22,430 bases of DNA, from UHGV virus genome UHGV-0073206. One strand, written 5' to 3'. The position numbers and the translations under genes are program-made. This document shows positions 1,809 through 21,012 of this stretch, piece by piece. The notes beneath the pieces are model-generated. The model made no database searches and had not been told where the DNA came from. It saw only the letters and a program-made list of their open reading frames with translations. Positions within the stretch are counted from its first letter, which is position 1. Each line of letters opens with the position of its first letter. The DNA comes from a virus.

Positions 1809-2813
1809 TTAACCTGATACAGATCGCCATGCACCATTAATATAAATCTGAGCCTGTTTGTAATACACGCCACCGATATTGTCTGCAGAGTTACGGCCAG
1901 TATCCTGAACATTAATGCCTGACAAAACACAACCAGAAGGTGCTCGAAACGTCCAGCTGTGCTCGTTCTGGTCCTGAGTAAACGTGACTTCCGAAACAAG
2001 CAGTTCGGTATTGTCGAAACCACAGACCGGATCAAAGACAATCACCCGCTGGTTGGGTTGCCACAGCGTACCGTTACCCTGTCGCCAGCCCTGCACCACA
2101 TAGGTGGTTTCATCCGTCCGCGCCGCCCGTTGCCGGGCTTCAAAGTCAGCACGCGCAATACAGCCTGCCCCCGTAGCCTGCCCTGTCTGCCTGATATACA
2201 TCGGACGGTAACGGGCAATAAATGCGTCCTCTGTGCGGGCCCTCAGCGCGGTGGTGGTGGCCTCACCGAAATCATCGTCGTTTCCGGCACGCTGCCCCGC
2301 CACCTGGTAAACAGAAAACCGCTCCCGGATACTCTTCTCCGTATCGCAGGAAAGGATGTTTTCCCCGAGCACCAGCGCAGTATGCGCCCGCGTTGAGCCA
2401 ATACCGCCAATCACCAGCCTGCCGTGCGGGTCGTCGTAAGCCAGTGCCTGCTGCTGACCGAGTATTTTGTTGATTACCTCAATCACCGTTTCACCATGAT
2501 CGGGCTGGACGTCAGGAATAACACCCGACGGCGCACCGCTGTTCACCACCTCAATGCCGAAGGGCGCAGCAAGCGCCTGCGCAATCTGTACCAGCGATCG
2601 TCCGTTAAACTGTGTCGGTTCGGCTGCACAGTCAATCAGGTCAGCAGTCAGACTACGTCCGGCAATACCGGTGCTGACCGAACGGGCATCGTAACGAACG
2701 GGGGTCGCCTCCACCCAGCCGGTGATCACCAGTTCATCACCAATCAGCACCTCCACTTTTGAACCGTTTTTAATGCGCGGCTGAAGCGTGGTGATACCCC
2801 AGCTCGCGGACAT
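1809..2813 (-). CDS. Phage tail/baseplate protein (Mu gpP / late-control-D-like), probably a truncated or fused remnant
   Basis: 334 aa from Met with weak SD (GGGAAAG); soluble beta-rich composition typical of myophage baseplate proteins; lies between the tail tube gene and tfa where tape measure, baseplate and tail fiber genes would be expected. Family assignment is from recall and is weak. Confidence 0.4.
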   Translation of the reverse strand: MSASWGITTLQPRIKNGSKVEVLIGDELVITGWVEATPVRYDARSVSTGIAGRSLTADLIDCAAEPTQFNGRSLVQIAQALAAPFGIEVVNSGAPSGVIPDVQPDHGETVIEVINKILGQQQALAYDDPHGRLVIGGIGSTRAHTALVLGENILSCDTEKSIRERFSVYQVAGQRAGNDDDFGEATTTALRARTEDAFIARYRPMYIRQTGQATGAGCIARADFEARQRAARTDETTYVVQGWRQGNGTLWQPNQRVIVFDPVCGFDNTELLVSEVTFTQDQNEHSWTFRAPSGCVLSGINVQDTGRNSADNIGGVYYKQAQIYINGAWRSVSG

Positions 2814-2898
2814 CTTTCCCGGTGGGCTCATCAAACTCCAGTACGGAGAGTGTCTCGCCATGAGCGGTAATCGGTTTCTTTAACTCAAGCTCTTTCAT
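2770..2898 (-). pseudogene. Tail assembly chaperone fragment (42 codons: MKELELKKPITAHGETLSVLEFDEPTGKDVREL...)
   Basis: ATG overlaps the tube gene stop (TAATG) as in sheath-tube-chaperone modules; the frame terminates after 42 codons and overlaps the next ORF, consistent with a deletion removing the frameshift chaperone extension and the tape measure gene. Confidence 0.3.
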
Positions 2899-3254
2899 TA
2901 CTGGTAATCCCCTTCTTCACCGTGGAACTCAAGATCGACCGTGCCTTCTTCGGCATTATGGTTCGCTTCGCCGTGCAGCCAGGCAGACGACAGTACATAG
3001 ACCTGACCGTTCGCCAGCTCGGCAGTGATGGTCATCTCATCAGACGAGGTGATTTTGCTCACCGGAAAATTCTTCGGCACCTTGAAGGTCCCTTTGACAT
3101 AAGGCGCACGGTGAGTTTCCTTGCGGTCCACTGAACCGTCCAGGCCGATGATGTCATCATTGACCGTCCTGTTCATGGGCACCTCAATGCCGCCGGTCAG
3201 TGATAGCTGCTGACCGTCAATTTTGAAATAACAGGTTCCCCCGATACGGGCCAT
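2898..3254 (-). CDS. Phage tail tube protein (Mu gpM-like size)
   Basis: 118-aa ORF immediately downstream of the sheath fragment with start overlapping its stop; size and position match contractile-tail tube proteins. Confidence 0.5.
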   Translation of the reverse strand: MARIGGTCYFKIDGQQLSLTGGIEVPMNRTVNDDIIGLDGSVDRKETHRAPYVKGTFKVPKNFPVSKITSSDEMTITAELANGQVYVLSSAWLHGEANHNAEEGTVDLEFHGEEGDYQ

Positions 3255-4030
3255 TATGCAGACTCCTCTGAATACTGAAGACGGAACTGGTTAACCACGG
3301 CAAAGACACGCAACTGGTTAACATAGTCAGGCGGGAACAGCGTGTTCAGGCGGTTCGGATCGCTGGCATCACGCTCCACAACCAGGTACTGCTTGAACAG
3401 TTCGTAGTTTTCCACGATCCCCGCACGCTCGAGCTGACGGTAGGTTGCCAGCAGTTCCCCTTTGATCACCGCCGGGGTGACAATCGCCTGACCGGGACCA
3501 AAGCGGGTACCGTCACTGGCAAGCTTGTGACGCCCGTACTTACTGGTAATGACGGATTTCAGTTTGCGCAGTACATACGCGCTGGTATGCAGCGTCTCGC
3601 TGTCGAGGTAGCTGTTATCCGCAACCCCGTAAGCGTTTTTCCTGTACGTGGTGACATCACGCTGAATGCGCAGCACCCCGCTTTCGACATACGCCGTTGC
3701 CACGCCATGAGACAGCAGGGTCTGCTGCTCGGTCATTGTGAACCGTTTCCCCTTCGGCGCAGGCAGCATACCCACCAGCTCACCGGTCTGCGTGGGACGT
3801 GCCGGATCGTTGCGGATAAACACTGCCGCGCGGGCGGTACGGCTGGCTGCCAGCTCGTCGGCAGGCGTCTGGGTGTCTTTTTCGTACCCCGCCAGGGTAA
3901 TGTGCTGCTGGTTAAACTGGTCACCTGCGGTCACCAGTTCTGACAGCGTGCCGGTCTTTGCCGTATACACATGACCATACAGCTGACGCGCATAGCTCCA
4001 GCGACCGCTGGTATCGTTCATCTCGGTCAC
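3254..4030 (-). pseudogene. Tail sheath protein, C-terminal fragment
   Basis: 258-aa ORF directly upstream of the tube gene; sheath proteins are normally larger than 350 aa; the 5' end overlaps the out-of-frame tail of the terminase fragment, indicating a deletion junction near 4030-4090. Confidence 0.5.
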
Positions 4031-4595: not shown

Positions 4596-5062
4596 AGGTT
4601 TTTAAATGGATTATCGCTCCCCTGCTTCGGCGTGATAAGCCGCTGCCGACTGGCAGGATCGAGTCCTAATAAACTACCGAATGTCACCATTTGTCTGGCG
4701 GCCTCATTTGCCGCCGTGAGTGCCGGGTTTTTCTTTGGCCCCGCCTCACTCTCTACCGTAATCCCAACGCGCATAACCTCCTGCTGCGACTCATGCCAGT
4801 TGCGAAAAGCAGTGCAGAATGCAACGACGTTGTGCAAATCAGTAACATAAAGAACTCGCTGGGCACAGAGCTCACGAATAATGGTGTCCCACATATGACG
4901 AGCGGTTTCATCAAACCACTCGGGAGGCTCAGCATGGGTGATCGGCGTGAATTTTGGTTCAAACTTATTTAATGCCCGCTTGCCGGGATTGCCTGCCAGT
5001 TCCTTACGGGTAGTCGGCTTCGGCTTTCTCCCTCTTCCGGGCGCAACAGATTTTTCTGACAT
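4592..5062 (-). CDS. Phage terminase small subunit (P27 family-like)
   Basis: 156 aa, basic N-terminus ([21 protein letters not shown]), positioned immediately upstream of and overlapping TerL, downstream of an HNH endonuclease as in HK97-type packaging modules. Confidence 0.7.
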
Positions 5063-10909: not shown

Positions 10910-11065
10910 TTACTCCTCAGGTTCGTAAGCTGTGAAGACAGCGACCTCCGTCTGGCCGGTTCGGATTCGTACCTCGCAGAGGTCTTTCCTCGTTACCAGT
11001 GCCGTCACTATGACGGTTAAACAGATGACGATCAGGGCGATTAACATCGCCTTTTGCTGCTTCAT
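10910..11065 (-). CDS. hok: Hok/Gef-family type I toxin (51 aa)
   Basis: MKQQKAMLIALIVICLTVIVTALVTRKDLCEVRIRTGQTEVAVFTAYEPEE: single TM helix followed by the conserved C...R..GQ/T.EV.A...YE motif of Hok/Gef toxins. Confidence 0.85.
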   Translation of the reverse strand: MKQQKAMLIALIVICLTVIVTALVTRKDLCEVRIRTGQTEVAVFTAYEPEE

Positions 11066-11122
11066 AGCCTGCTTCTCCTTGCCTTTCGGCACGTAAGAGG
11101 CTAACCTACATTTGTGAGACAT
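10910..11122 (-). CDS. mok: Mok-like N-terminally extended frame overlapping hok (translational-coupling ORF)
   Basis: 70-aa in-frame extension (MSHKCRLASYVPKGKEKQA + Hok); the size relationship matches recalled mok/hok pairs. Not independently verifiable here. Confidence 0.35.
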   Translation of the reverse strand: MSHKCRLASYVPKGKEKQAMKQQKAMLIALIVICLTVIVTALVTRKDLCEVRIRTGQTEVAVFTAYEPEE

Positions 11123-11241
11123 AGATTGGGCCTCAGATTAATGTTAAGCGTCTTGCAGGACGCGTAATGTTAACTGGGGCTTTTCTCTATCTGCCTTTTG
11201 GTGTTCATGCCTGAGACAGATAGCCTCAAGCACCCGCAGTT

Positions 11242-15426: not shown

Positions 15427-15618
15427 ATGAGTACAGCCCTTTCTCCGATAGTTTCAGAATTCGAAACTACCGAACAAGAAAACAGTTACAACGAATGGTT
15501 ACGCGCTAAAGTGGCGTCAAGCCTTGCAGACCCTCGTCCCTCAATTCCACATGATGAGGTAATGGCTGAAATGGAGAATCTTATTGCTCAAATTGCTGTA
15601 ACTAACAGGAGCGAGTAA
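15427..15618 (+). CDS. paaA2: PaaA2-like antitoxin
   Basis: 63 aa; SPIVSEFETTEQENSYNEWLRAKVASSLADPRPSIPHDEV matches the recalled PaaA2 antitoxin of the PaaR2-PaaA2-ParE2 module; SD AGGAG 9 nt upstream; stop overlaps the toxin start (TAATG). Confidence 0.7.
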   Translation: MSTALSPIVSEFETTEQENSYNEWLRAKVASSLADPRPSIPHDEVMAEMENLIAQIAVTNRSE

Positions 15619-15905
15619 TGTTACCCATTTTGTGGCTACCATCTGCTCGCGATGATTTGCGTCAGATCGTAGCCTATATTGCTAAGGAAAATATTCCTGC
15701 AGCACGCAGACTAAAAATACGGATTGAAACGTCTGTTTTAGCCCTCTCTGAGCATCCATATCTATATCCGCCAAGTGATCGAGTATCCGGTTTGCGGGAA
15801 ATTGTGGTTCACCCTAATTATATCGTTTTGTACCGAGTAGCAGCTTCAAGCATTGAAATTGCAAATATTGTGCATGCCCGCCGACAATTTCCCTTCCCTA
15901 TCTGA
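15618..15905 (+). CDS. parE2: ParE/RelE-superfamily toxin (ParE2-like)
   Basis: 95 aa; ParE-like features (DDLRQIVAYIAKENIPAARRL...LSEHPYLYPPSDRVSGLREIVVHPNYIVLYRV); translationally coupled to the antitoxin. Confidence 0.8.
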   Translation: MLPILWLPSARDDLRQIVAYIAKENIPAARRLKIRIETSVLALSEHPYLYPPSDRVSGLREIVVHPNYIVLYRVAASSIEIANIVHARRQFPFPI

Positions 15906-15922
15906 ACTGAACAATTTTCACA

Positions 15923-15947
15923 CCCCCTCATTCGAGGGGGTTTTTTT
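15923..15947 (+). terminator. Rho-independent terminator after parE2-like gene
   Basis: CCCCCTC-ATTC-GAGGGGG followed by TTTTTTT. Confidence 0.7.
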
Positions 15948-15961
15948 GTCCAACACAACAA

Positions 15962-16001
15962 TTAAAAACTGTTGACACAAAACAGTTTTTAATTGTAGAT
16001 T
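15962..16001 (+). promoter_or_regulatory. Early-left (dicB-operon) promoter overlapped by operator inverted repeat
   Basis: -35 TTGACA (15972-15977), 18-nt spacer, -10 TAGATT (15996-16001); overlapped by TTAAAAACTGTTGACACAAAACAGTTTTTAA sharing the half-site of the 14926-14959 repeat. Confidence 0.55.
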
Positions 16002-16177
16002 ATTTCCACTACCCCACCCCGCCCCACAGAACGCAGGGCAATACTTCGAGTTACCCGGCAGTGGTCAGGGGTTAAGTAGCCAGCCCGAGGCGTAAGAACA
16101 TGACGGCAGGGTTCAACTTTAACTATGCAGCAGGTTTTTGTTCCGCTACCCCGGCGTTAAGGGGAAATGAGGTCAGC

Positions 16178-16333
16178 ATGGATACTATCGATCTTGGCAA
16201 CAACGAATCTCTGGTGTGCGGCGTGTTTCCCAATCAGGACGGCACGTTCACCGCGATGACGTATACCAAAAGCAAAACGCTTAAAACCGAAAATGGTGCC
16301 CGTCGCTGGCTGGAAAGAAACTCAGGTGAGTGA
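16178..16333 (+). CDS. ydfA: YdfA/YdaF-like small protein (51 aa)
   Basis: Start at Met MDTIDLGNNESLV... with SD GAGG; matches recalled YdfA/YdaF of Qin/Rac prophages; first gene of the dicB-type operon. Confidence 0.6.
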   Translation: MDTIDLGNNESLVCGVFPNQDGTFTAMTYTKSKTLKTENGARRWLERNSGE

Positions 16334-16334
16334 T

Positions 16335-16463
16335 ATGGATTTCAACACAATCATGGAAAAGGCTTACGAAGAATACTTCGAAGGCCTTGCCGAAGGCGAA
16401 GAAGCCCTCAGCTTCAGCGAATTTAAACAGGCGCTTTCCAGTTCGGCAAAATCTAACGGCTGA
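16335..16463 (+). CDS. ydfB: YdfB-like small protein (42 aa)
   Basis: MDFNTIMEKAYEEYFEGLAEGEEALSFSEFKQALSSSAKSNG; start 1 nt after the ydfA-like stop; size and position match YdfB. Confidence 0.5.
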   Translation: MDFNTIMEKAYEEYFEGLAEGEEALSFSEFKQALSSSAKSNG

Positions 16464-16492
16464 TAAGCGAAGCAGCACCGCGAGGAATCAGT

Positions 16493-16711
16493 ATGCAGAA
16501 ACGAGAACCCGTCATCATCGCGCCAGACTATACCGATGATGAACTTTATGAGTGGATGCACCAGAAAATTAAGGCTGCGCAGGACCTGAAATGGGCCAAT
16601 GAAGCCAGGGCTAAGCAGGCTGAAAATCTGTCCGCTCTGGAGCAGGATATCACCAATCTGGAAAAAGCAGCGGCATTAAGCATTGCCAGAATGATTACAT
16701 ACCCACGTTAA
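16493..16711 (+). CDS. ydfC: YdfC-like protein (72 aa)
   Basis: 72-aa coiled-coil-like ORF third in the operon; size and order match YdfC of Qin-type dicB operons. Confidence 0.55.
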   Translation: MQKREPVIIAPDYTDDELYEWMHQKIKAAQDLKWANEARAKQAENLSALEQDITNLEKAAALSIARMITYPR

Positions 16712-16733
16712 TGGTTAACCAACGAGGCTAATA

Positions 16734-17339
16734 ATGGAATTTAAAGATTTACCAAAAGAAATCCAGATAATTGCTGCAACGACACTCGGTGATAGTCTGG
16801 TGAAAATTGACCCGGCATACACCAAAAAAGAAACCATCGATAATATGGTTCGTAATGTGCGCAATGCTTTTTCAGGGCTATATGGTTCTGATAATCAAAA
16901 ACAGGAAAACGATATTGATGAACGGGTAATTTCTGTTTGCCTGAATGGTCATGTTATTTCAGCAATCAGAACAGAAACGGCAACTGCTTTTGATTATCTC
17001 TGCATGATTCAGAGTCTTGCCGATGTTCTGTTGAAATCAAAAGATTTAGAAAACGATGCAAATTTACAGGGGCGCACAATAGCACATCCATATGCACATA
17101 TTTTAAGCTCTGTGGATGTTAAAAATAATACCCTGCAAGTTGCTTTCGAACATTCACCGCAAGAGTTAAAAACGAAAAAAGACGATGCGGATAAAAATAA
17201 TAACGATGCACCTGATTTGTTTATTATCAGCTCAAAGCTGCTGGAAATCATGAAGAGCGAGCTTGAAAAACACAACATCAAGCCCACTTCTGTAAATTTA
17301 CGATGGGTAATGAGGATTATTGACGCTTCTCTGTCATAA
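16734..17339 (+). CDS. Hypothetical protein (201 aa), AT-rich cargo gene inserted between ydfC-like and DicF-like
   Basis: Clean 201-aa ORF, visibly more AT-rich than flanking genes, starting 23 nt after ydfC-like; no recognised domain; Lys/Asp/Asn-rich with no TM segment. Confidence 0.6.
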   Translation: MEFKDLPKEIQIIAATTLGDSLVKIDPAYTKKETIDNMVRNVRNAFSGLYGSDNQKQENDIDERVISVCLNGHVISAIRTETATAFDYLCMIQSLADVLLKSKDLENDANLQGRTIAHPYAHILSSVDVKNNTLQVAFEHSPQELKTKKDDADKNNNDAPDLFIISSKLLEIMKSELEKHNIKPTSVNLRWVMRIIDASLS

Positions 17340-17439
17340 GCTTCTTATCCAGGAATGCTTCAAATGTATTGTAAATGGCGTCAATTTCCCCCATTTGCTC
17401 GGTAGCAAGAGAAATGGCGTGAGATAGTGAAAGGGGCAC

Positions 17440-17508
17440 CTAGCAATGGGCGTTAAAGGTTTCCACGGCCAGGCGCATAAGAAACATTACTTTTTCTTCT
17501 TGTGTCAT
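17440..17508 (-). CDS. 22-aa ORF with near-consensus SD (MTQEEKVMFLMRLAVETFNAHC); possible small peptide or chance ORF
   Basis: ATG preceded by AGGAGG at 9-nt spacing on the minus strand; lies within the ORF-poor segment downstream of the 201-aa gene. Confidence 0.2.
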   Translation of the reverse strand: MTQEEKVMFLMRLAVETFNAHC

Positions 17509-17832
17509 AAATTTCACCCTCCTGAGGGTTGGTAATTAAGGAGTTCTCCACGGGTGAGGTGGAGTGTGTGCGCCGGACACGGGTGAGCATCCGGCACTGA
17601 CAGTTTACAGAAAGGATATATCCCTGAAAAGTCAGGGCATAACGCGAAAGCGCACGGCGAGGTAGTTGGTTCATAGATAGCCTGTCGTTAAATTTTCGTC
17701 GACCGTGCGCTTCCGGTTGTGGCACTCCGCGAAATGGCGCGGCGGTAAGTATGGCGGGGTTATTCCTTCCCCGTTGAGGACACCGGGTTGTCAGGTTGAC
17801 CATACGCCTGAGTGACAACTCCGCTACAACAA

Positions 17833-17895
17833 CCCATGTTGATTACCTTTTGGCGGGTATTCGTTTTGTTTTTCCCGTGATACCCGCCCCTTTTA
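17833..17895 (+). ncRNA. dicF: DicF-like small RNA (divergent 5' region, conserved 3' terminator stem)
   Basis: ...UUGAUUACCUUUUGGCGGGUAUUCGUUUUGUUUUUCCCGUGAUACCCGCCCCUUUU has the same architecture as recalled DicF (…UUUGGCGGUAUCAGUUUUACUCCGUGACUGCUCUGCCGCCCUUUUU): GGCGG stem, CCGUGA, CCGCCC+U-tract; lies ~175 nt upstream of dicB as in Qin. 5' boundary is approximate. Confidence 0.4.
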
Positions 17896-17898
17896 AAG

Positions 17899-18054
17899 TG
17901 AATTTTGTGATGCGGTGAATGCGGCTCAGCGCACGCGGAACAGTTAAAACAAGCGGTCTTTTACTTGCGTAACAGACATCAACTAACAATCCGGCGTTAA
18001 TTGTTGACTGGTTAACGTCACCTGGAGGCACCAGGCACCGCATCACAAAATTCA
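17899..18054 (+). other. Perfect 19-bp inverted repeat pair (TGAATTTTGTGATGCGGTG ... CACCGCATCACAAAATTCA) enclosing 118 nt; candidate RNase III processing duplex between DicF-like and dicB
   Basis: Arms at 17899-17917 and 18036-18054 are exact reverse complements; located between the DicF-like terminator and the dicB SD. Confidence 0.45.
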
Positions 18055-18071
18055 TTGTTGAGGACGCGATA

Positions 18072-18260
18072 ATGGAAACGTTATTACCAAACGTTAATAC
18101 GTCTGAAGGTTGTTTTGAAATTGGTGTCACTATCAGTAACCCAGTATTTACTGAAGATGCCATTAACAAGAGAAAACAAGAACGGGAGCTATTAAATAAA
18201 ATATGCATTGTTTCAATGCTGGCCCGTTTACGCCTGATGCAAAAAGGATGCTGGCAATGA
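18072..18260 (+). CDS. dicB: Cell division inhibitor DicB
   Basis: 62 aa METLLPNVNTSEGCFEIGVTISNPVFTEDAINKRKQERELLNKICIVSMLARLRLMQKGCWQ, near-identical to recalled DicB; SD GAGGA at 8-nt spacing. Confidence 0.8.
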   Translation: METLLPNVNTSEGCFEIGVTISNPVFTEDAINKRKQERELLNKICIVSMLARLRLMQKGCWQ

Positions 18261-18460
18261 ATACTACATTTGCACTTGTTCTGACGGTTTTTCTTGTTTC
18301 CAGTGAACCGGTTGACATGGTTACTGGCGTATACGGCTCAATGAAAGAATGCATGGTTGCCGCAGCGGAACAGAAAATTCCCGGTAACTGTTATCCGGTC
18401 GATAAAGTTATTCACATGGATAATAACGAAATCCCGGCAGGACTTAAAACAGCACCGTAA
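18257..18460 (+). CDS. ydfD: YdfD-like small protein with N-terminal hydrophobic segment
   Basis: Start ATG overlaps the dicB stop (ATGA); MNTTFALVLTVFLVSSEPVDM...; position and size match YdfD of Qin-type operons. Confidence 0.5.
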   Translation: MNTTFALVLTVFLVSSEPVDMVTGVYGSMKECMVAAAEQKIPGNCYPVDKVIHMDNNEIPAGLKTAP

Positions 18461-18540
18461 TTAATATCCGGTTTCATTTTTATATGCCAGCAATGGCAGG
18501 GATTTGTTCACCCTTAAATCTGTAATGAGGTTAAAACAAA

Positions 18541-21012
18541 ATGAGTAAAGTCTTTATTTGCGCCGCCATTCCGGACGAACAGGCAATAAAGGAAGAAGGT
18601 GCAGTCGCTGTAGCCACTGCCATTGAAGCCGGCGACGAACGTCGCGCCCGTGCCAAATTTACCTGGCAATTCCTGGAGCAATATCCGGCTGCTCAGGACT
18701 GCGCTTATAAATTTCTTGTCTGCGAGGATAAACCCGGCATGCCCCGCCCTGCCATCGACTCTTGGGATGCTGAATATATGCAGGAAAACCGCTGGGATGA
18801 GGAGTCAGCTTCCTTTGTCCCGGTTGAGACTGAATCAGATCCGATGAACGTCACTTTTGACAAGCTGGCCCCTGAAGTACAGAACGCTGTCATGGTTAAG
18901 TTCGACACATGTGAAAACATCACCGTTGATATGGTGATTAGTGCACAGGAACTGTTGCAGGAAGACATGGCAACATTCGACGGACATATCGTTGAAGCGT
19001 TGATGAAAATGCCAGAAGTTAACGCCATGTATCCGGAGCTTAAGCTGCATGCCATCGGGTGGGTTAAGCATAAATGTAAGCCTGGAGCTAAATGGCCCGA
19101 AATTCAGGCAGAGATGCGCATCTGGAAAAAACGTCGCGAAGGTGAACGCAAGGAAACCGGAAAATACACGTCTGCTGCTGATCTCGTCCGCGCCAGAGCC
19201 AATCAACAGAACACTGAAAATTCAACAGGAAAAATCAGCCCGGTCATTGCTGCCACTCATCGCGAATACAAGCAGACATGGAAAACACTGGATGATGAAC
19301 TGGCCTACGCTCTGTGGCCTGGTGACATTGATGCCGGAAACATTGACGGCAGCATCCATCGCTGGGCAAAAAATGAAGTTATCGACAACGACCGCGAAGA
19401 CTGGAAGCGTATCTCGGCATCAATGCGCAAACAGCCTGATGCCCTTCGCTACGACCGCCAGACTATTTTTGGCCTTGTCCGTGAGCGTCCGATCGACATT
19501 CACAAAGACCCTGTGGCACTGAACAAATACATTACTGAATACCTGACTACAAAGGGCGTGTTTGAAGATGAAGGAACAAATCAGAGCGCAACTGATACTC
19601 TCTCGTCGCCAGTACCAGAAACTGATGCAGTGGAAACGGCAATTCCGGACAACGAAAAAACCGAATGCAAAGTGGAAGTCGAACCATCTGTAGAGCGTGA
19701 GGGGCCGTTCTACTTCCTCTTCACCGACAAGGATGGCGAAAAATACGGTCGCGCAAACAAACTTTCTGGTCTGGATAAGGCGCTGTCTGCTGGGGCTACT
19801 GAAATCACGAAAGAAGAATATTTCGCCCGCAAAAACGGTACATACTCAGGTTCACAACAAAATACTGGTGCATCTGACACGACCGCACAACCAGGGTCAG
19901 TAAAAGTTACCGCTGACGAAGTAAACAAAATTATGCAGGCAGCCAATATCAGCCAGCCTGACGCCGATGAACTGCTTGCAGTATCACGTGGTGAATTTGT
20001 TGCAGGAATTAGCGATCCGAATGATCCGAAATGGGTGAAGGGGATGGAAACCCGCGATTCTGTGAACCAGAACCAGCAAGAAACGGAACAGAACGGCCAG
20101 AAAGCGGAACAAAACAGCCCAAATGCGTTACAAAACGAGCCAGAAACGAAACAGCCTGAACCAGTAGTGCAACAGGAACCGGAAAAGATCTGCACCGCCT
20201 GCGGTCAGACCGGCGGCGGCAACTGCCCTGATTGTGGCGCGGTGATGGGCGACGCAACATACCAGGAAACATTCGATGAAGAGTATCAGGTTGAAGTTCA
20301 GGAAGATGATCCGGAGGAAATGGAAGGCGCTGAACATCCAAACAAGAAGAACACTGGCGGCAATCAGCATCACAATAGCGATAATGAAACTGGCGAGATG
20401 GCAGATCACTCAATTAAGGTGAACGGTCATCACGAAATCACATCCGCCAGTAGGACGTGTGACCATCTAATGATCGACCTTGAAACCATGGGAAAAAATC
20501 CTGATGCCCCGATCATCTCAATAGGTGCAATATTTTTCGATCCGCAAACCGGAGATATGGGACCGGAATTTAGTAAGACTATCGATCTGGAAACTGCTGG
20601 CGGAGTCATTGATCGGGACACCATTAAATGGTGGCTTAAGCAATCACGCGAAGCGCAATCTGCCATTATGACCGATGAAATCCCGTTAGATGATGCACTG
20701 TTACAATTGCGGGAATTTATCGACGAAAACTCCGGTGAATTTTTTGTTCAGGTCTGGGGAAATGGAGCCAACTTCGACAACACGATTTTGCGCCGTTCAT
20801 ACGAACGGCAGGGGATCCCCTGCCCGTGGCGTTACTACAACGATCGCGATGTACGCACAATCGTTGAGCTGGGGAAAGCCATAGACTTCGATGCCAGAAC
20901 GGCTATCCCATTCGAAGGTGAGCGCCATAATGCACTTGATGACGCTCGTTACCAGGCAAAATACGTTTCAGCTATCTGGCAAAAACTGATCCCGAGTCAG
21001 GCTGATTTTTAA
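18541..21012 (+). CDS. RecE-like (YdfE-like) protein with C-terminal DEDDh 3'-5' exonuclease domain
   Basis: 823 aa; central region (SRGEFVAGISDPNDPKWVKG...CTACGQTGGGNCPDCGAVMGDATYQETF) matches recalled Rac RecE including the CxxC-x9-CxxC zinc ribbon; the C-terminus carries DnaQ-like motifs (HLMIDLETMG; VWGNGANFD; HNALDDARYQAKY) instead of RecE's PD-(D/E)XK nuclease domain. No recT follows. Confidence 0.7.
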   Translation: MSKVFICAAIPDEQAIKEEGAVAVATAIEAGDERRARAKFTWQFLEQYPAAQDCAYKFLVCEDKPGMPRPAIDSWDAEYMQENRWDEESASFVPVETESDPMNVTFDKLAPEVQNAVMVKFDTCENITVDMVISAQELLQEDMATFDGHIVEALMKMPEVNAMYPELKLHAIGWVKHKCKPGAKWPEIQAEMRIWKKRREGERKETGKYTSAADLVRARANQQNTENSTGKISPVIAATHREYKQTWKTLDDELAYALWPGDIDAGNIDGSIHRWAKNEVIDNDREDWKRISASMRKQPDALRYDRQTIFGLVRERPIDIHKDPVALNKYITEYLTTKGVFEDEGTNQSATDTLSSPVPETDAVETAIPDNEKTECKVEVEPSVEREGPFYFLFTDKDGEKYGRANKLSGLDKALSAGATEITKEEYFARKNGTYSGSQQNTGASDTTAQPGSVKVTADEVNKIMQAANISQPDADELLAVSRGEFVAGISDPNDPKWVKGMETRDSVNQNQQETEQNGQKAEQNSPNALQNEPETKQPEPVVQQEPEKICTACGQTGGGNCPDCGAVMGDATYQETFDEEYQVEVQEDDPEEMEGAEHPNKKNTGGNQHHNSDNETGEMADHSIKVNGHHEITSASRTCDHLMIDLETMGKNPDAPIISIGAIFFDPQTGDMGPEFSKTIDLETAGGVIDRDTIKWWLKQSREAQSAIMTDEIPLDDALLQLREFIDENSGEFFVQVWGNGANFDNTILRRSYERQGIPCPWRYYNDRDVRTIVELGKAIDFDARTAIPFEGERHNALDDARYQAKYVSAIWQKLIPSQADF

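Follow-up and report, generated by a model that had tools for sequence, protein, structure and literature searches.

The stretch of DNA analysed here (the window) comprises 22,430 nt of the virus genome UHGV-0073206. The analysis concerns a 795-bp accessory cassette of two genes in an early-left operon of the Qin/Rac type, placed after ydfC and before the leader that contains DicF. DNA identity and the annotation of near-identical genomes gave a Qin-type gene order around the cassette, with ydfA-ydfB-ydfC upstream and dicB-ydfD downstream, in one orientation and behind an operator-bearing promoter. An earlier note on this DNA, made from its letters alone, had recognised a dicB-type operon with a ydfC-like gene ending at 16711, and both points held. 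The features discussed below are collected in Table 1.

The boundaries of the extra DNA were determined by BLASTN, with the Qin prophage of Escherichia coli K-12 MG1655 as the reference. Positions 1971-2562 and 2563-3600 of the K-12 locus corresponded to 16140-16731 and 17527-18562 of the window, at 96 and 88% identity, respectively. Because positions 2562 and 2563 are neighbours in K-12, the extra DNA is exactly 16732-17526. It is about one-third smaller than the 1.1-kb insertion (16734-17832) proposed earlier, whose right boundary was misplaced: the stretch 17527-17832 adjoins ydfC in K-12 and in most E. coli that lack the cassette, at 88-95% identity. The insertion had been proposed on the premise that DicF lies within tens of nt of ydfC in Qin, but the gap in MG1655 is 340 nt (ydfC end, 1649041; dicF start, 1649382). 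Neither short repeats, nor a target-site duplication, nor a mobile-element signature was seen by eye at the cassette junctions.

When 16712-17832 was used as the query, 4,316 of 5,426 complete E. coli genomes gave matches. Nearly all of these were restricted to approximately positions 816-1119 of the query (17527-17830 of the window), where K-12 derivatives were ~95% identical, and the entire arrangement was present in eight genomes. Since most genomes match the tail only and eight match the whole, the tail is the canonical leader and the cassette is a rare allele. The expected presence/absence polymorphism between prophages was thereby confirmed, with K-12 Qin as an empty example. The GC content was 0.36-0.39 across the 201-amino-acid (201-aa) open reading frame (ORF) of the cassette, ~0.49 upstream and in the flanks, and 0.50-0.545 across 17400-17900. 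Together with the K-12 comparison, this jump bears out the view of a compositionally distinct, accessory segment inside a dicB-type early operon. The tail had also been called GC-rich, but it is so only in comparison with the AT-rich ORF and lies only slightly above the local background. The statement that it holds no sense-strand ORF of more than 25 codons was inexact; mechanical ORFs of 29-36 codons occur there, with no sign of being genes.

Table 1. Features of the cassette and its surroundings, in positions of the window.
Feature	Position	Strand	Basis
ydfC homologue, 72 aa, last conserved gene before the slot	16493..16711	+	ORF list; 16140-16731 96% to MG1655 Qin; annotated in closest genomes
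Two-gene cassette, extra relative to K-12 Qin, 795 bp	16732..17526		BLASTN breakpoints 16731/16732 and 17526/17527
201-aa operon-sense gene, three-module fusion	16734..17339	+	Intact frame, dN/dS, PHROG matches by module
Module A, aa 1-55	16734-16898	+	Part of 201-aa gene
Module B, aa ~62-132	16917-17129	+	Part of 201-aa gene
Module C, aa ~147-201	17172-17336	+	Part of 201-aa gene
sm63, 63-aa gene, phrog_2605, pseudogene here	17317..17508	-	Translations of 6 loci, homologues, dN/dS
Ribosome-binding region of sm63, AGGAGGG at 17517-17523, just inside right junction	17509..17526	-	Sequence
Rest of predicted sm63 5' leader; plus strand is ydfC-dicF untranslated region	17527..17597	-	Fold, column conservation
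Candidate sigma-70 promoter for sm63	17602..17630	-	-35 TTTTCA (17630-17625), 17-nt spacer, -10 TAAACT (17607-17602)
Canonical long untranslated region of dicBF-type operon, outside insertion	17527..17832	+	88% to MG1655 over 17527-18562; ~95% to K-12-derived strains; PMC5069750
DicF-position small RNA variant, intrinsic-terminator hairpin (17852-17888) and U-run	17838..17897	+	Fold -16.8 kcal/mol, z = -3.2
dicB homologue, 62 aa, division-inhibitor gene, downstream of leader	18072..18260	+	ORF list; annotated dicB in matching genomes

The operon-sense gene of the cassette was open over all 201 codons in each of the six full-arrangement loci compared (the window, L001, L005, L006, L007, and L008). 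Its ratio of nonsynonymous to synonymous substitutions (dN/dS) was 0.30 overall and 0.10 in the low-complexity linker between modules B and C, for copies ~10% apart in DNA; the whole 201-codon frame is therefore coding. The mosaic structure of the product was derived from PHROG profiles, a search of 5.8 billion proteins, and a HMMER search that covered 1.84 billion representatives exhaustively, and each of the three modules had independent matches among these representatives. Module A (MEFKDLP...) forms the N-terminus of many proteins whose tails are unrelated, module B also occurs alone as ~80-aa proteins, and module C is found both alone (57-aa proteins) and at the C-terminal end of larger proteins, YdfC-like ones among them. 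Residues 1-130 matched the PHROG profile phrog_1363 (1.4e-40), a family annotated as 'unknown function', and the 201-aa form corresponds to the usual 135-aa protein plus module C (phrog_15476/2982-like). Intact and, as described earlier, low in GC, the gene is nevertheless no orphan but a phrog_1363 member and three-module mosaic with many relatives. The expectation of no recognisable domain was borne out in Pfam, NCBIfam, and PADLOC. A full-length AlphaFold2 model based on 21 homologues had a confidence score (pLDDT) of 39.5 and was unusable for a fold search. For module C, a DNA-binding domain of the ribbon-helix-helix type, with its beta-alpha-alpha fold, is conceivable.

Compared with the commoner version of the cassette, which encodes proteins of 135 and 77 aa, the differing stretch was 17118-17512, that is, exactly the linker, module C, and sm63. 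The module C-sm63 pair has thus been spliced in frame onto an A+B gene. The RefSeq annotation (PGAP) calls the intact 201-aa gene a pseudogene ('incomplete; missing C-terminus') in every genome that has the gene (6335-6733 in L001 and 1835-2233 in L005-L008), because the reference family is the commoner 135-aa form; this label is a systematic mis-annotation.

On the minus strand, sm63 is, by its conservation, a real gene of which the window holds a pseudogene copy. An in-frame TAG stands at 17440-17442, where intact copies have CAG (Gln23), and the frame continues for a further 40 codons behind it. The gene was intact in L001, L005, L006, and L007, carried a frameshift in L008, and was interrupted by the nonsense codon in the window; the CAG copies (four of the five other full-arrangement loci) encode 63 aa starting with MTQEEKVMFLMRLAV. 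The 22-aa minus-strand ORF reported earlier, with a near-perfect Shine-Dalgarno (SD) sequence, was thus correctly read in its length and signal (AGGAGG at 17518-17523, 9 nt from the ATG at 17508-17506), but it is the truncated N-terminal stump of a conserved 63-aa gene. The full-length product matched phrog_2605 (3.2e-18), another family annotated as 'unknown function', and homologues with 35-100% identity were found in E. coli, E. albertii, Shigella phage SfII, Edwardsiella phage EPP-1, Serratia, Buttiauxella, and metagenomes. Its length was kept from E. coli to Serratia and Edwardsiella, and dN/dS was 0.05-0.11 between diverged copies, whose synonymous sites are near saturation. Searches of sm63 against Pfam, NCBIfam, and PADLOC were negative, and by eye the protein is mostly polar, without a hydrophobic stretch of transmembrane length.

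The 3' end of sm63 overlaps that of the 201-aa ORF by 23 nt, and the same geometry recurred elsewhere: sm63 and an ORF with module C were convergent, with a 3' overlap of 23-39 nt, in each context examined around diverged sm63 homologues and stand-alone module C proteins (metagenome, genome, Serratia, EPP-1, and SfII). A protein-anchored sweep of IMG/VR and GTDB for loci with a recognisable sm63 found the module C partner in 49 of 50, and the dN/dS of module C was 0.07-0.30. These comparisons show that, in phages of the Enterobacterales, the module C gene and sm63 are obligately paired in a conserved convergent arrangement, and that both are under strong purifying selection. The scan of GTDB representative genomes added only Serratia and Buttiauxella as new carriers of sm63. 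The single locus of the 50 with a seemingly degraded module C partner was L147 (Buttiauxella sp. B2), which may be a natural 'unpaired' case. In SfII (NC_021857, L143), a 68-aa module C ORF at 3654-3860 (-) has been missed by the annotation; it converges on SfII_36 (the sm63 homologue), and the two overlap by 39 nt.

The site of the cassette was surveyed in 124 loci, consisting of 120 IMG/VR loci with a hairpin from the leader together with reference loci. Seventy-nine were empty as in K-12, with the junction ...CCTTAATTACCAACC/TTAGCTT... running directly into ydfC. The remaining 45 were occupied, and their junction read ...CCAACC/CTCAGGAGGGTGA(n)ATG, followed by a small minus-strand ORF. At least five unrelated ORFs of this kind (sm77, sm92, sm63, sm73/74, and sm91) stood behind an identical CTCAGGAGGGTGA; all began at a fixed distance from an SD sequence of consensus strength, and each was convergent with an operon-sense ORF, with an overlap of 11-41 nt. 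Pairwise BLASTP among the cargo families connected only sm73 with sm74 (1.7e-12) and, weakly, rac10 with sm74 (0.012), and did not join the families into one superfamily. Pfam was negative for five other cargo proteins and ten modular relatives, as were Pfam, NCBIfam, and PADLOC for the 135/77-aa pair. The aligned loci thus show the ydfC-leader junction to be a cargo slot, empty in K-12 Qin and filled elsewhere by at least five apparently unrelated minus-strand genes. The same layout was observed in Rac-SA53, where rac11/rac10 lie upstream of kilR. A literature search returned nothing relevant on an antisense start site near ydfC or on descriptions of this slot. The recurrent slot is a common class of prophage accessory slot, previously undescribed but unsurprising, of which the cassette of the window is a rare member.

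A long untranslated region is known from the dicBF operon, in which DicF is processed from a long transcript (PMC5069750), and the tail of the window is this ordinary ydfC-dicF leader. The earlier suggestion that the ORF-poor tail holds a dedicated structured RNA or a decayed second gene accordingly fails for 17527-17832, and no Rfam 15 family matched 17340-17832 at gathering thresholds, nor was there any meaningful match at E<=10. Among 103 distinct spacers, the best-conserved stretch was 17530-17660, directly upstream of the cargo ribosome-binding site, with column conservation of at least 90-97% over 17527-17597, whereas the DicF region was variable. The minus strand of 17509-17597 folds at -35.1 kcal/mol (z = -4.5) into an 11-bp hairpin at the 5' end, a second hairpin of 6 bp, and a weak stem that contains the SD sequence. 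The hexamers of the candidate promoter were conserved in the 103 spacers, and by eye its -35 region, GCC(C)TGnCTTTTCA, looks like the core that precedes sm63, rac10, and ymfI in other phages. Two further motifs in this part of the leader are possible protein-binding sites: CACGGGTGAG, which occurs twice, 29 nt apart (17549-17558 and 17578-17587), with each copy overlapping one leader hairpin, and the perfect 10-bp palindrome GGATATATCC (17612-17621) in the spacer of the candidate promoter.

Diverged sm63 loci carry a 'group 2' leader that is different from but related to that of the window, as do the regions upstream of rac10 and ymfI. Upstream of sm63 in these loci lies a core of ~65 nt with a median identity of 0.81, compared with 0.67 for the sm63 coding sequence and 0.49 further upstream. 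The core has an invariant TGnTATnnT, the pattern of an extended -10 element, and an inverted repeat, TCTTGG-N14-CCAAGA, that has been kept by compensatory changes in three lineages. The repeat was 99% paired with five double-change cells, none of 500 shuffles reached the observed score, and slid controls lacked double changes. In K-12 e14 (L145), the same core stands upstream of ymfI at ~4925-4997, and its inverted repeat has a compensatory variant of its own (TGCTGG/CCAGCA). A pseudoknot considered in the core (GCCTG/CAGGC with CCAC/GTGG) was dropped, as it had no compensatory changes and several broken pairs.

Further along the leader, 17666-17725 (+), which reads GTTAAATTT...GTGCGCTTCCGGTTGT, resembles the promoter-proximal region and the 5' end of the small RNA (sRNA) KilS of K-12 Rac, with 17701-17725 as the part corresponding to the KilS 5' end. 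KilS can be transcribed from its own promoter (Bar et al.), and the likeness suggests that an internal operon-sense promoter could drive the DicF variant and dicB independently of the main promoter. The earlier note placed a DicF-like element near 17833, but the sRNA at this position (about 17838-17897) is a diverged variant, reading GGCGGGTAT...ATACCCGCC and ending in a terminator; the Rfam DicF model (RF00039) is blind to this variant, with no match in 16600-18200 even at E<=10, whereas the K-12 DicF control scored 76.7 bits. Of the 103 spacers, 65 had canonical DicF, ~10 had the window-type variant, and the others had further variants, and prophages seem to exchange the regulatory 'seed' of the sRNA family at this position. 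The arms of a 19-nt long-range inverted repeat (17899-17917 and 18036-18054) flank the stretch that separates the sRNA terminator from dicB, and this repeat overlaps a sub-threshold Rfam match to the Salmonella sRNA STnc100 at 17901-18049 (34.6 bits against a gathering threshold of 47). An RNase III site that processes DicF precursors is known, and the inverted repeat is plausibly that site.

The operon promoter itself, TTGACA-18-TAGATT (15972-16001), lies within an inverted repeat with a 16-bp stem (15958-16001), which is likely an operator. The earlier description of the operon as constitutively expressed was not supported; in Qin, DicA represses the operon in the lysogen. Between the repressor gene and the operon promoter lie a relB/relE-type toxin-antitoxin pair (15427-15905, +) and, behind the pair, a strong intrinsic terminator (15922-15941). 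Elsewhere in the prophage, a full-length sok antitoxin RNA was found at 11060-11235 (-) (Rfam RF01794, 120 bits), and a hok/sok type I toxin-antitoxin module is therefore present there.

Several known systems resemble the cassette in its position or geometry. The dicBF operon of Qin shares the gene order, the long leader, and the DNA identity given above, from ydfC to beyond dicB; it has nothing between ydfC and the leader, whereas the window has the cassette and, in addition, the DicF variant unseen by Rfam. The sieB gene of Rac and of lambda/P22 is a lysogen-expressed superinfection-exclusion gene that is anti-oriented in the early-left operon. In K-12 Rac, it has the same position and orientation as sm63, and is convergent with ydaF, the last small early gene, with overlapping ends; an ORF-free leader encoding the operon-sense sRNA KilS lies between sieB and the division inhibitor kilR. 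By eye, the alignment of the region upstream of sieB shows the same hairpin and core motifs in a diverged form. SieB differs in its size of 162 aa, and the cargo proteins have no known exclusion phenotype. The ymfJ/ymfI genes of K-12 e14 are likewise convergent and 3'-overlapping, just after the repressor gene, with the ~65-nt core and its compensatory changes upstream of ymfI. The N-terminal module of YmfJ is common to operon-sense mosaic ORFs (75% over 40 aa to a P0040-like protein and 41% over 65 aa to the 118-aa protein of L009), but YmfI (113 aa) is no relative of sm63, and module C is absent from YmfJ. In lambda OOP/cII and P22 sas/sieB, 3'-overlapping or internal antisense transcription ties a lysogeny-phase function to a lytic-phase function (PMC7067206); both cassette partners are protein-coding, in contrast, and the regulation proposed for the cassette is deduced only from its geometry.

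Genes that lie antisense to lytic operons are typically accessory loci of prophages (PMC7067206), and the cassette was earlier likened to morons, defence genes, or anti-defence genes. Its placement is indeed moron-like, with a minus-strand gene at the sieB position of K-12 Rac, but PADLOC gave no defence match. We favour, with a probability of roughly 0.55, the interpretation that the window carries a two-gene cassette in a cargo slot, in which a small accessory gene expressed in the lysogen is antisense-coupled to a partner in the early operon. The candidate minus-strand promoter in the leader would drive the small gene through a structured leader of ~87 nt, with transcription running from the leader toward ydfC, mainly in the lysogen while the operon promoter is repressed. 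The small gene would then be expressed as a moron, like sieB; lysogen expression is proposed because the antisense-to-lytic-operon rule (PMC7067206) and the sieB precedent both fit. On induction, strong operon transcription would meet that of the small gene head-on and would yield the module C-bearing 201-aa partner together with RNA fully complementary to the leader and 3' end of the small gene. The small gene would be shut off by transcriptional interference, duplex formation, or both, giving a two-state switch, and the small protein and module C probably either interact or share a target. The window itself can still produce only the early-operon partner of the pair.

Several observations count against this interpretation. 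PADLOC-DB 2.0 gave 0 families for all five proteins tested, with no defence, toxin-antitoxin, or anti-defence family among the matches, and family searches in Pfam and NCBIfam gave no SieB similarity for sm63 or the other cargo, no direct alignment of SieB with sm63 having been made. A stricter consensus promoter scan found no minus-strand promoter, and the candidate agrees with the consensus at 8 of 12 positions. Conservation of the leader is just as high in 'empty' prophages and may serve the plus-strand operon RNA or an internal promoter of the DicF/KilS type instead of a minus-strand gene. Instead of forming an RNA hairpin, the compensatory inverted repeat could serve as an operator for a protein. 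Finally, sm63 is dispensable in at least some lysogens, because it is broken in the window and in L008.

We extend the interpretation tentatively to other prophages, in a form that we regard as possible rather than probable. The ydfC-leader junction of Qin/Rac/e14/SfII-type prophages may be an undescribed hot-spot, at which unrelated small genes (sm63, sm73/74, sm77, sm91, and sm92 and, by position, SieB, YmfI, and rac10) stand anti-oriented behind conserved promoter/leader DNA with a covarying inverted repeat. Module C-sm63 might then be a new two-protein system, acting in exclusion/immunity or as a lysogeny-lysis toggle, and the complementary operon leader RNA, kept even in 'empty' phages, might be an off-switch analogous to P22 sas.

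The cassette could alternatively be ancestral and have been lost from K-12 Qin by a deletion, with no special biology of the slot and with the variety of cargo reflecting lambdoid mosaicism between conserved flanks. The slot is occupied in Rac (sieB), e14 (ymfI), SfII, and EPP-1, which makes occupancy look older than the Qin state, and the breakpoints fall exactly at the edges of genes and ribosome-binding sites, as homologous exchange in conserved flanks predicts; the junctions without a target-site duplication or mobile-element signature point the same way. However, this scenario bears on polarity only and is compatible with the antisense-coupled cassette, whose nature it leaves unchanged. 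It explains neither why the upstream core is better conserved than the coding sequence nor why at least five unrelated genes share one ribosome-binding site and one orientation, and we consider it unlikely as an account of the locus.

The two genes could also form a toxin-antitoxin-like addiction pair, in which a toxic member (either module C or sm63) is neutralised by its partner. The overlap would provide antisense control, and the nonsense and frameshift alleles of sm63 would represent inactivated toxins. Two small genes are obligately linked here in a prophage, sm63 has been disrupted twice independently while its partner stayed intact, and the window already has relBE and hok/sok modules. 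Comparison with the known types gave no positive evidence for this possible reading. Pfam, NCBIfam, and PADLOC contained no type II toxin or antitoxin domains matching the 201-aa protein or sm63, and the genes were convergent in every locus examined rather than arranged in the co-directional bicistronic operon of that type. With regard to hok/sok-like type I systems, sm63 is not hydrophobic by eye and no Rfam antitoxin RNA was found in the cassette region. We regard an addiction pair as rather improbable.

Two further explanations fare poorly. That a 1.1-kb insertion encodes an orphan protein together with a dedicated structured RNA partner or a decayed second gene in 17340-17832 would suit the unusually stable fold of the minus-strand leader, and a decayed gene does exist, but at 17317-17508; the K-12 comparison refutes this idea for 17527-17832, no Rfam family was found, and the protein is not an orphan, which makes it very improbable. 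That the minus-strand ORFs are incidental, with only the plus-strand ORF mattering and the leader acting only in plus-strand RNA (DicF processing or an internal DicF/dicB promoter), would agree with the conserved leader of empty loci, with the KilS-like 17701-17725 and the promoter that KilS can have (Bar et al.), and with the processing of DicF from a long transcript (PMC5069750), but it is hardly credible given the low dN/dS and constant length of sm63 from E. coli to Serratia and Edwardsiella and the fixed distance of all cargo ORFs from a consensus-strength SD sequence.

For the window, the outcome of the analysis is mostly corrective: the insertion is smaller than was proposed, its supposed tail belongs to a dicBF leader of the ordinary kind, the 22-aa ORF is what remains readable of a pseudogene, and the RefSeq pseudogene label on the 201-aa gene is wrong. 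More broadly, it describes a cargo slot that recurs in E. coli prophages of a very common class, a convergent gene pair under tight conservation, and an upstream core whose conservation exceeds that of the genes behind it. If the small anti-oriented genes are sieB-like exclusion or immunity factors expressed in the lysogen, small phage-resistance proteins could conveniently be sought in the slot, and the finding would also bear on how the expression of the toxic dicF/dicB module is buffered.

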